Source: a virus | Taxonomy: Duplodnaviria > Heunggongvirae > Uroviricota > Caudoviricetes | Length of the DNA: 64,000 nt | Virus record (IMG/VR): IMGVR_UViG_2529293141_000015 | Location: 1,630-65,629 of that record | Direction: 5' to 3' (one strand) | In this document: piece after piece, positions 3,001 through 6,000 of the stretch | Numbering within the stretch: the stretch's first letter is position 1 | How the letters are laid out: every line of letters starts with the position of its first letter | Made by a program: the position numbers

Positions 3001-6000
3001 AATTTCGATCTGACAGTCTTGAAATATCCTGTAGCGTGCGGCGCATTTCTTCCGTCAGATGTTTGAAGGCGTTAAATTCAGCGACAGCGGCGTCAACGTT
3101 ATAGCCCTTGCTGTGTAGCTCGTTGAGGATGCGCATAGTTGGGCTTGGCATATCGAAGAGCACAGAAACGTCCAGGTTAAGAGTTTTTCGATCAACATAG
3201 CTCATCATGGAGTATGGGTGATGCTCAGAAAACCACGAGAGAGGGTAGTTGATAGACAGCGTTGATTCTGGAAGCTGAAGTTGTTCTGGAATTTTCTGGC
3301 TGAAATAGCAGTCTTCCAGTTTTTCGAACACCTCCCACGCCCGATCGGTTTCGAGCATTTTTGCGTGACGGGCAGCGCCGCGTTCTGTCCAGAGGATGAG
3401 GGAGCGAACGTTACGGGCGATTTTCACAGAGTAGTTAAAAGCTACTCTGTGCTTGAACTCACGTAAAGTTTCACCTTCAAGTTTGAAGAAGTGTTTTTCC
3501 TCAATGAAACGACCTTTGTTTTCGTGGTGATTCTGGCGAATACGAATAGCTTCTGTGCCGTAAAGGTGCGCCAAAAGTTCGGTAGTGATAACGGGGATCT
3601 GCTTGTAAGTAATCGTGGAGAGTGTTTCAACAGAAACTTGAGTTGTCATTATGACGCCCTCGAGTGGTTTCTAAACTATCACCACCGTTAGGTTCGAATC
3701 ATCGGGTGGTGAGACGTACAGGGTTCGAACTACCGGGAAACCAACCGGCGAGCTTTTCAGCTCCCCTATACGCCCCACCATAATTCAGATGTGCGCGTGC
3801 ATACGACAATAAAAAACACGCTCGCGGCGTGTCTCTGTCGCGGTTTCTATCCGGGGTTCGAATCCCGACGGTCAACTCGACCGTGCGAAGAATATAATCC
3901 CGGATATGTGTTGTCGTCAACAAGTGGCGTGCTATCATCGAATAGTGTTCTATCCTACTCAGTGAGGTTTAACATGCGTACAACCCAACAATTCAGCATT
4001 ACATTAACCAACGAAATGGCTGACATGGTGCGCGCCCGTGTGGCTTCCGGTGCATACGCTTCAGAAAGCGAAGTTATTCGTGAAGGGCTTCGTGCACTGA
4101 ATGAACGCGACAAAGCAATGGAAGCGTGGTTAATACACTCAGCCGCGCCGCCACTCGACGCTATTCGTGAGAACCCAGGCAAAGGGCACTCCATTTCACA
4201 GGTTCGCTCTGAGATTCGCGCCCGGAAGTAATCTGCATGGCATATGAAGTGCCACACTAACAAACTGCTCCAGGTATGGGAATAGTGTCACTTGCAGCAC
4301 CTATTAGAGATCCGATAATGAACATCATAGCAAGGTTCTTTTATTTGATAATTTTCTGCATGGCAACATCAGGATGCACTACCACTACGAAAATAAATCG
4401 CGGAGATGAAAAGGAACAGTACATCATTGCCTGTGGTGCCGCTACACCATGGGGAGTATGCTATGATAAAGCCAATGCCCTATGTAAAAATGGATATAAA
4501 GACATTTTAAAGGAACAGGGATTTAACAGGAAAGAATTAACCATTGAGTGTAAATAAGGCCATCATTTGCAACGTTGAAAAAATTCGCCCGTGCTACAGG
4601 GGAAAAAACTCCAGATCCGCTTCGTTTAACTACGAGGATTACCACTAATGGCGATGTTTACCCCCCCTCATCCCGGAGAAATTATTGCTGATATTCTGGA
4701 AGATCAGAATATTGGAATCAGGGAACTGGCAAGAGCGCTTGATGTCGCGCCTTCCACTGTTCAGCGACTGGTTTCAGGTAATGCGACAATATCTCCTGAA
4801 ATGGCTGTTCGTCTCGCTGCTGTCCTGGGTGGAACTCCGTCTTCATGGATTCGTCTCCAGACGGCATGGAGCCTTGAAAAAGCGGAAAGAGAAGTTGACG
4901 TATCTCATCTCTCAACAAAATACCGCCCGGCAGAAATTTCGCCTCATGCTTAACCACCGCGCCGTCATTCTGGCGGCGTCGGAGAGTGGAGGATATCAGG
5001 TTCCGAACTCTGCTTTGTTCTCCGCGTCCAGGATTTCTTCAATCTTCCGTACTCCCCGATTATTGTATCGGAAGCTTTCTACCTGCTTATCCGAATACGG
5101 GGATTTGTCGATGAACCATTTCCCGTATTGTTCTGTTTTGAGCATGTAGGTATTGGCAATGCGACCAACCTTGTTAGCGGATATTTTGAGTTGTGATCCA
5201 ACTTCTGACGCCGAATAGTAATGTTCATTGATCATCGGTAGCGGGATTACGTTAGCGCCTACAACGGGATTAACCAGGCTGGCGGCAACGACCTGTTTAG
5301 CTTCCGGTGCAAGGTTAGGGAGGAAGTCGAAGAGGTCCTTCATTGTGTCGACGGTCATTTTCAATGCGCGTGCCTTACGGAATTCTTCAAGGCCATCCGG
5401 TGATTTCTTCGTGGTGGTTTTTTGTTGCAACTGCTGTTGCATTGATTCCAGTTTATCGACCAGCGAACGACGAACGGCCTTCGACTCACGCGCGGCTACT
5501 CGCAGGGCTTGCTTGAAAGTCATTGTTATAACTTCTATTTCTGCGCCGTTTTTCTGACCTACGAAAATTTCGTAGGTCTCTCCTTCAAGCTCATCCTTAA
5601 CTCTGGCAATGAAATCATTATTGCGAACGGGCCTTTCACTACATAATTTCCGTGCCTCATTGACCATTTTCAACAGCATCTGGCTGTCGATTGTTGCAGC
5701 CGGAAACGAAGACTGATTTGCAATATTGTTAATCATGTATTCTGTCCTTTTCAGATAAAAGAAATCCCCGCGAGTGCGAGGAAGTCAATCACTGCCGATA
5801 TTCACCTTTATCGCGAACACCTTTACCGGTTTATCTCCGAAGTGTGTATGTGTGATTGTCTTGATTTCATACCCTTCATACGGGACGTCAATTCTGCGGC
5901 TGGAATCGTCGCGCTTCGGATATCCCTTTGTGATAATCAGACGGTCATATTCCCGGAACATAATTCGCTTATTCCAGTAGTCATTACACAGGCGATACTC

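Follow-up and report, generated by a model that had tools for sequence, protein, structure and literature searches.

A near-identical 125-nt block links two probable RNA-gated antirepressor cassettes in a Stx-converting prophage

Two genes with a near-identical core

We analyzed a stretch of 64,000 nt of viral DNA (the window; IMG/VR record IMGVR_UViG_2529293141_000015, positions 1,630 to 65,629), which is the early-left arm of a Sepvirinae-type Shiga toxin (Stx)-converting lambdoid prophage of E. coli or Shigella. Stx phages that include Stx1_2409, PA8, VT2phi_272 and PA2 are 96-98% identical to it over 63-74% of the region length. Two genes of the window, here called A and B, carry a near-identical block of coding DNA, both on the minus strand. 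Gene A (2972..3649) encodes a protein of 225 aa, with an ORF6N N-domain at aa 12-98 (about 3356-3616; Pfam PF10543, E 1e-19) followed by an Ant-like C-terminal domain (CTD) at 2975-3253. Gene B (14394..15041) encodes 215 aa from an ATG at 15041, with an Rha N-domain at about 14724-14981 (PF09669 Phage_pRha, E 1.9e-30; TIGR02681, E 4.5e-31) and again an Ant-like CTD (14397-14675); its open frame reaches further upstream to 15179, across a C4 RNA gene. RefSeq relatives are labelled 'ORF6N domain-containing protein' for gene A and 'Rha family phage regulatory protein' for gene B. The N-terminal halves of the two proteins are unrelated, and their last ~118 residues are 69% identical.

A preliminary description of this DNA had reported that positions 3041-3163 and 14463-14585 differ at 4 of 123 bases within a ~290-bp region of lower similarity. 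Pairwise alignment of 2850-3350 with 14272-14772 gave the same 4/123 mismatches and extended the near-identical run to 125 nt (copy A, 3039..3163; copy B, 14461..14585; both on the minus strand), with 4/125 differences, all of them synonymous, and perfect runs of 41, 14, 26, 17 and 23 nt. Copy A encodes VLFDMPSPTMRILNELHSKGYNVDAAVAEFNAFKHLTEEMR, the core of the shared CTD. A repeat search of the whole window likewise recovered the enclosing region as a gap-free direct repeat of 300 nt (2950-3249 and 14372-14671), with 78% identity and a spacing of 11,422 nt; the only other long repeats were, near 41 kb, an array of collagen-like units and, elsewhere, a perfect inverted pair of insertion sequences (IS) of 1,251 nt. 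Chance is excluded as the origin of the likeness because a 61-nt sub-block, allowing up to 3 mismatches, occurs at 2 places only in the window, with 0.00 expected from 100 dinucleotide-preserving shuffles.

The same description had assigned the two copies to the C-termini of an ORF6N-type and an Rha-type protein with unrelated N-termini, which the Pfam matches and the protein comparison confirm, and had noted a similar hairpin after each gene. Both hairpins are present on the minus strand. The one after gene A (2940..2958; CCCCGAC-ATCCC-GTCGGGG; about -13 to -14 kcal/mol) has a T-run after it and was flagged as intrinsic-terminator-like; the related one after gene B (14365..14383; CCCCGA-CCACATA-TCGGGG; -12.4 kcal/mol) is without a T-run and leads into a kil-like gene. 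What the preliminary description lacked was the placement of the genes on the minus strand, the RNA-controlled cassettes of isrK and C4 type in which they lie, and the antirepressor likeness of the domain that they share.

The shared C-terminal domain

The shared CTD is ~94 aa long, and in the two window proteins no Pfam or NCBIfam model matches it. PHROGs puts it in 'anti-repressor' families, and the CTD matches phrog_450 at E 1.3e-4. When the PDB was searched with the CTD sequence, the single meaningful match was chain E of entry 5D50 (phmmer E 0.003). This chain is Ant, an antirepressor of 86 aa from Salmonella phage SPC32H, complexed with the repressor Rep. This Ant is reportedly a small LexA-controlled antirepressor that binds the Rep repressor (the report being that of Kim et al. 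in PNAS in 2016). A profile built from 17 diverse CTDs matched the same chain at E 4.4e-5, and in the reciprocal search the Ant fragment of 5D50 matched the CTD part of phrog_1760, to which protein A belongs (E 1.5e-6). The motif common to the CTD and Ant (MRILNELHSKGYNVDAAVAEF vs MKLLRELDKDGFNVDGPLAEL) falls exactly within the block, which encodes the most conserved part of the CTD, namely a helix, a GYNVD turn and the start of a long helix. The AlphaFold model of the CTD has a mean pLDDT (predicted local distance difference test) of 76.8, with values of 85-91 over the block; Foldseek gave no match, and the margin over unrelated helical proteins was small. We consider the CTD likely to be homologous to SPC32H Ant, and its function would be repressor binding.

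Leader RNAs of the two cassettes

Upstream of both genes we found Rfam matches to isrK (RF01394; 53.0 and 60.3 bits in the two cassettes) and to C4 (RF01695; 70.1 and 78.9 bits), all above gathering. The two cassettes, each of ~1 kb, are collinear from promoter through hairpin, the swapped N-domain excepted, and share the order promoter, isrK-like leader, C4-type antisense RNA, variable N-domain, CTD and hairpin. Cassette A begins, on the minus strand, with a candidate sigma-70-like promoter (3891..3920; TTGACG-18-TATATT; a consensus match only), which ends 7 nt before the isrK-like leader RNA (3811..3884). This leader contains the first copy of a recognition word, GGATTCGAACC, at 3855-3865; the C4-type antisense RNA (3702..3785, minus strand) presents the loop word GTTCGAACCC at 3721-3730, and a third copy, again in sense, GATTCGAACC, occupies 3691-3700, ahead of the start of gene A. 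Cassette B follows the same plan on the same strand, with a sigma-70-like promoter at 15290..15318 (TTGACT-17-TATATT; likewise a consensus match only), an isrK-like leader RNA at 15208..15283 with its own terminator hairpin (15213-15228) and first word copy GGATTAGGGCC (15251-15261), a C4-type antisense RNA at 15096..15183 with loop word GTCCTAACCC (15115-15124), and the sense word CTTAGGACC at 15084-15092.

Each leader thus has its word three times, as sense in the isrK-like hairpin, as antisense in the C4 loop and as sense just upstream of the gene. The words change in concert between the cassettes (TTCGAAC in A vs TTAGGAC/GTCCTAA in B), and an own exact word of 7-8 nt in the same sense, antisense, sense arrangement is present in 8/9 leader types from relatives. 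These coordinated changes argue that the predicted RNA switches are functional and that the two cassettes differ in specificity; their variety among relatives implies that Stx phages may hold many mutually non-interfering RNA specificities. The isrK/C4 arrangement is repeated in ATCC 43889 and in the O104:H4 phage, and C4 or sRNA-Xcc1 RNAs are found upstream of distant CTD genes. Compensatory leader words of 7-10 nt were also seen at six further loci (L001, L021, L024, L026, L049 and L051), and leaders of the sRNA-Xcc1 type have two words each, like the a/b sites of P1 c4. A joint consensus fold of the C4 and Xcc1 RNAs was uninformative, the two families aligning poorly.

We considered whether the same RNA leader occurs on different N-domains, which would place a 5' joint in the leader, and rejected it, as leaders always co-segregate with the N-domain. 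Since leader and N-domain always travel together, the exchanged unit appears to be leader plus N-domain, with the CTD core as the joint. The leader also contains an open reading frame (ORF), starting at 3781 in A and at 15179 in B, which is fused in frame to the Rha gene in B and stops about 25 nt before the gene A start in A. Residues 1-57 of the long ORF B, translated from the C4 RNA gene and leader ORF (15041-15179, minus strand), match PF10554, the 'Ash protein family' of Pfam, and RefSeq annotates the fused form of 257 aa; PF10554 may be largely a model of translated RNA-gene sequence or of an orf45-like leader peptide.

Domain partners of the CTD in relatives

Our set of close relatives consisted of 63 full-length CTD copies, taken from IMG/VR contigs and the window. 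In these, near-identical CTDs are attached to ORF6N, Rha or AntA N-domains, and ORF6N and AntA swap at one genomic position, where the hairpin and the genes downstream stay the same. The CTD family had 24 matches in 1.8 billion representative proteins; the Pfam partners among 22 representatives were Rha, KilA-N, ORF6N, Bro-N and P22_AR_N, bringing the unrelated N-domains that carry the CTD across relatives to at least six (ORF6N, Rha, AntA, KilA-N, Bro-N and P22_AR_N). The domain shuffling proposed earlier from the two window genes is therefore seen in the population as well, with ORF6N, Rha and AntA as partners in close relatives and KilA-N, Bro-N and P22_AR_N in distant ones. Iyer et al. are said to have written in 2002 of 'extensive domain shuffling', as seen here for the CTD partners.

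Among GenBank phages the CTD is confined to 105 records of Stx-converting, E. coli or Shigella phages, usually with two copies and sometimes with three. A scan of one genome per species with the CTD profile gave no confirmed locus, a viral-contig scan with a distant CTD found nothing, and a word-indexed protein search with the CTD returned almost only partial E. coli proteins; the DNA of distant homologues was obtained by exact look-up. Two single loci deserve mention. At L016 (IMG/VR UViG_2751185961_000012) a variant of cassette A has no ORF6N domain and its leader runs straight into the last ~120 codons, so that this locus is a natural CTD without an N-domain. At L063 (GCA_034224985.1, DASCXQ010000064.1) a distant Rha-CTD gene, with 49% CTD identity, comes directly after a Q-antiterminator gene, with an RNA of the sRNA-Xcc1 type between the two, a position like that of isrK-orf45-anrP after antQ in Gifsy-1.

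Recombination at the block

We compared synonymous variation in the block and around it. Of the codons identical at the amino acid level, 6/43 (14%) have a synonymous change in the block vs 15/31 (48%) in the flanks (Fisher p 0.0017), and among 40 distinct alleles the diversity minimum is at window positions 3044-3103. Identical block alleles are found on ORF6N, Rha and AntA genes and on flanks of both A and B type. The four-gamete test gave a minimum number of recombination events (Rm) of at least 12 in 282 nt, with 7 of the intervals in or at the block. Left-flank types (A, B and C) and tail types (A and B) re-assort, the combinations B/A, C/A and C/B all being seen.

A clear hybrid is the Rha gene of the Stx2a prophage of the O104:H4 outbreak strain. 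At informative sites it is copy-A-like at a few early positions (nt 12-36 of the CTD), copy-B-like from about nt 39 to 192, including all four sites that differ in the block, and copy-A-like again from nt 216 almost to the stop codon. As the B-type sites end at nt 192 and the A-type sites start at nt 216, the crossover lies in window positions 3038-3061 (CTD nt 192-216). The O104:H4 phage has the arrangement of the window plus an insertion of 929 bp that extends from one CTD core to the next and holds a promoter, an RNA of the sRNA-Xcc1 type and another ORF6N domain; in strain 2013C-3181 three cassettes follow one another. That the block is a substrate for recombination, as had been suggested before, agrees with these natural hybrids that cross over inside it and with the Rm value. 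To judge from the alleles, the block is homogenised by recombination, and protein constraint alone does not explain it.

Taking all this together, we think it probable that the locus holds two paralogous RNA-gated antirepressor cassettes that share an Ant-like CTD, the core of which is homogenised by recombination. The two paralogues, in direct orientation on the minus strand, would be autonomous units, each with its own promoter. By comparison with P1 c4, P4 CI and Gifsy-1 IsrK, the C4 and isrK RNAs would hold the gene silent until the switch is relieved, and owing to their differing words cassettes A and B would not cross-regulate. The CTD would bind and inactivate a CI-type repressor, and the swapped N-domains would contribute a further activity, which may be DNA binding. 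Repeated crossovers in the block through homologous recombination, carried out by host RecA or the phage Exo/RecT, would account for its near-identity at the DNA level. Such crossovers could take place both from one paralogue to the other and between Stx phages that share a host as residents or through co-infection, homogenising the CTD core and re-assorting the sequence on either side of it. The moving unit would be leader plus N-domain, joined to the CTD by a crossover in the block, and in tandem arrays a whole block-to-block unit would be gained or lost. A broader proposal, which we put forward tentatively and hold to be doubtful at present, is that the CTD core acts as a recombinase-free 'joint' that makes the antirepressor loci of Stx phages into cassette arrays, where units of promoter, antisense RNA and N-domain might be inserted, lost and exchanged, giving mutually non-interfering, RNA-gated antirepressors with one repressor-binding module.

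Several observations weigh against the reading of two recombining antirepressor cassettes. No hybrid of an A-left flank with a B-tail was found among the 63 copies, and closely related prophages of Shiga toxin-producing E. coli make up most of the IMG/VR and GenBank samples, so that counts from them are not independent events. A Rep-like target in the window was looked for and rejected: the repressor of the prophage itself (18311-19024) is homologous to lambda CI over its full length and has no similarity to the Rep chain of 5D50. We also searched for the junction that recombination between the two window copies would leave, with a query that started downstream of gene A and ran through the tail of that gene and the block into the left flank of B, the Rha domain and the leader of B. 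At a query coverage of at least 80% this junction was found at 0 places in 5,426 complete E. coli genomes and 50,697 phage records. Even relatives of 48 kb keep both cassettes, and therefore intragenomic recombination between the copies may be rare or selected against.

As an alternative, the copies could be alike solely through very strong purifying selection on the peptide, recombination and gene conversion playing no part. Within the 123-nt block each of the four differences is indeed synonymous, and the 43-codon run is identical in amino acids; moreover, the block is the best-conserved part of the CTD in distant homologues and has the highest pLDDT. However, the rate of synonymous change in the block is a third of that in the flanks (p 0.0017, as above), block alleles are common to different paralogues, four-gamete violations occur inside the block and clean B-to-A hybrids exist. 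For these reasons we regard selection on the peptide as improbable as the sole cause.

Less probable still is that the pair is mainly a deletion substrate, recombination between direct copies regularly removing 11.4 kb and yielding single hybrid genes, an outcome that the preliminary description had predicted and had proposed to look for in related prophages. The copies are in direct orientation with a longest perfect run of 41 nt, the phage encodes Exo/RecT, and hybrid Rha genes with A-type tails exist. Against this stand the junction search described above and the setting of the known hybrids: the best matches to the query cover the hybrid gene only and sit in tandem arrays rather than where a deletion would have joined the ends. 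Both copies persist in short relatives; in ATCC 43889 and many Stx2a phages both cassettes are kept, 9-12 kb apart, and single-copy phages have another early-left module, AU5Stx1 carrying a lambda-like exo-bet-gam-kil-cIII-N module in place of the B module. The short (48-kb) and single-copy relatives were accordingly rejected, on inspection, as deletion products, and the survey gave no deletion derivative with a single hybrid gene. With a perfect run of 41 nt, deletion is mechanistically possible in principle; a noticeable rate finds no support in these genomes.

Finally, a cis-acting DNA or RNA element within the coding sequence (a small RNA such as IsrJ, a target site, a promoter or a recombination hotspot) would fit third codon positions that are almost invariant at window 3044-3103 among 40 alleles, as well as the small RNA gene isrJ that comes after the antirepressor-like gene in Gifsy-1 (PMC4825925), but it appears unlikely and the least probable of the three alternatives, given that no Rfam family, isrJ included, matched either copy or hairpin above noise at E up to 5, that the block has no promoter- or terminator-like site, and that in homologues of ~50% identity roughly one synonymous site in two has changed within the block (14/27 and 10/20).

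Surroundings of the cassettes

The blocks are separated by an interval of 11.3 kb (3164..14460) with ParD- and HigA-type antitoxin genes, an IS3-family element (7154-8404), DUF2303, a YqaJ-type exonuclease (11863-12552), RecT (12549-13568), GamL (13516-13797) and kil. The preliminary description had listed here an antitoxin island, a copy of IS911 and exo-recT-gam; the antitoxins and the recombination genes stand, and the IS911 label was not confirmed, as the element shares 99.9% identity with elements that carry the annotation 'IS3-like element ISEc52 family'. Its partner, at 49077-50327, forms with it a perfect inverted pair over 1,251 nt, 40.7 kb apart and inside the prophage. Recombination, which would here yield an inversion, has a much stronger substrate in this pair than in the 125-nt block; the genes between the two IS copies are still collinear with ATCC 43889.

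The ParD-family (3975-4231) and HigA-family (4648-4953) antitoxin genes lie directly upstream of cassette A on the opposite strand, with no obvious partner toxin ORF between them, and are thus orphan antitoxins. Directly downstream of cassette B comes the kil-like FtsZ-inhibitor gene (14111..14323, minus strand), which matches NF008465 at E 8e-19, below the curated cut-off, and is named 'cell division inhibitor protein' in RefSeq. On the other side of cassette B, between it and the cI-like repressor gene, is a type II restriction-modification pair (15797-18216; a BsuBI/PstI-family endonuclease and an Eco57I-like methylase) that is conserved in the O104:H4, ATCC 43889 and TL-2011c phages. There is no LexA box at the cassettes, CTGT-N8-ACAG occurring in the window only at 44329, 58090 and 62248.

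Elsewhere in the window we found the small RNA STnc100 (RF02076) at 24683-24896 as a full-length match of 197.9 bits, and a collagen-like Gly-X-Y array at 41042-41874, with eight copies of a 47-nt unit plus related units, presumably in a tail-fibre gene. A minus-strand ORF at 1256-1654 contains six tandem PVQ tripeptides and occupies the position of the DUF1627-type gene of related phages.

Significance

Phage mosaicism and domain swapping in the Bro network, also together with RNA immunity, are already known as general phenomena, and all the ingredients described here are of known kinds. What is added is the assignment of an unannotated CTD to the family of SPC32H Ant, the compensatory RNA words and the mapped crossovers. 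Stx2a phages from O104:H4, O157:H7 and O103:H25, which are major outbreak lineages, carry the cassettes. Antirepressors can set the inducibility of a prophage and hence toxin production. The Ant-like CTD module, the antisense-RNA specificity proper to each copy and the re-assortment through the 125-nt joint offer handles for experiments; together, the Ant-like module, the RNA gating and this re-assortment would explain why such genes are annotated so inconsistently, as 'antirepressor', 'antitermination', 'transcriptional regulator' or 'hypothetical'. If the CTD is truly the repressor-binding part, then the 'DNA-binding' N-domains of Bro-network proteins, which have long lacked an explanation, would serve as exchangeable modules with an accessory or targeting role.

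Comparison with known systems

One known system close to the cassettes is Ant of SPC32H, from which the window proteins differ in several respects. Ant is a stand-alone protein of 86 aa, whereas the window domain is fused to a large N-domain; control here is predicted to be by antisense RNA, with no LexA box near the cassettes; and the window repressor is lambda-CI-like and not Rep-like.

In the architecture of their leaders, the cassettes resemble the immI region of P1/P7 (c4-icd-ant), P4 CI with seqA-seqC, and the isrK-orf45-anrP-isrJ region of Gifsy-1. In Gifsy-1 the isrK-orf45-anrP operon has an RNA switch that gates translation of an antirepressor-like protein (PMC4825925). Common to these systems and the window are an isrK match, a C4 match and an antirepressor-like gene in that order, a leader ORF beginning ATGGTGGG inside the C4 region, and a short recognition word as sense, antisense and sense copies. 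Unlike them, the window has two units with different words in one phage, and relatives have more. Compared with Gifsy-1, no isrJ comes after the window genes, and the leader ORF is either an in-frame fusion (B) or ends about 25 nt early (A), in contrast to the AUGA overlap in Gifsy-1 (PMC4825925).

The Rfam profiles of C4 and isrK detect relatives of P4 CI and seqA beside genes of the 'Bro network' (PMC10111431). The window genes fit this picture, as they combine ORF6N or Rha N-domains with an exchangeable C-terminal module that is also found on AntA, KilA-N, Bro-N and P22_AR_N, and as they adjoin immunity RNAs of C4/isrK type, like the 'Bro zones' of phage-inducible chromosomal islands (PMC10111431). 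They differ in that their C-terminal module is not ANT, KilA-C, ORF6C or P22_AR_C, and in that the swapping mechanism would be visible here as crossovers in a defined core of 125 nt.

Such a core recalls the joints of lambdoid mosaicism. These are conserved segments where modules exchange by homologous recombination. As there, the block is a short conserved segment and the diverged flanking alleles re-assort in the population; unlike there, the joint is intragenic and lies at a domain core, so that exchange creates protein chimeras and not whole-gene swaps.

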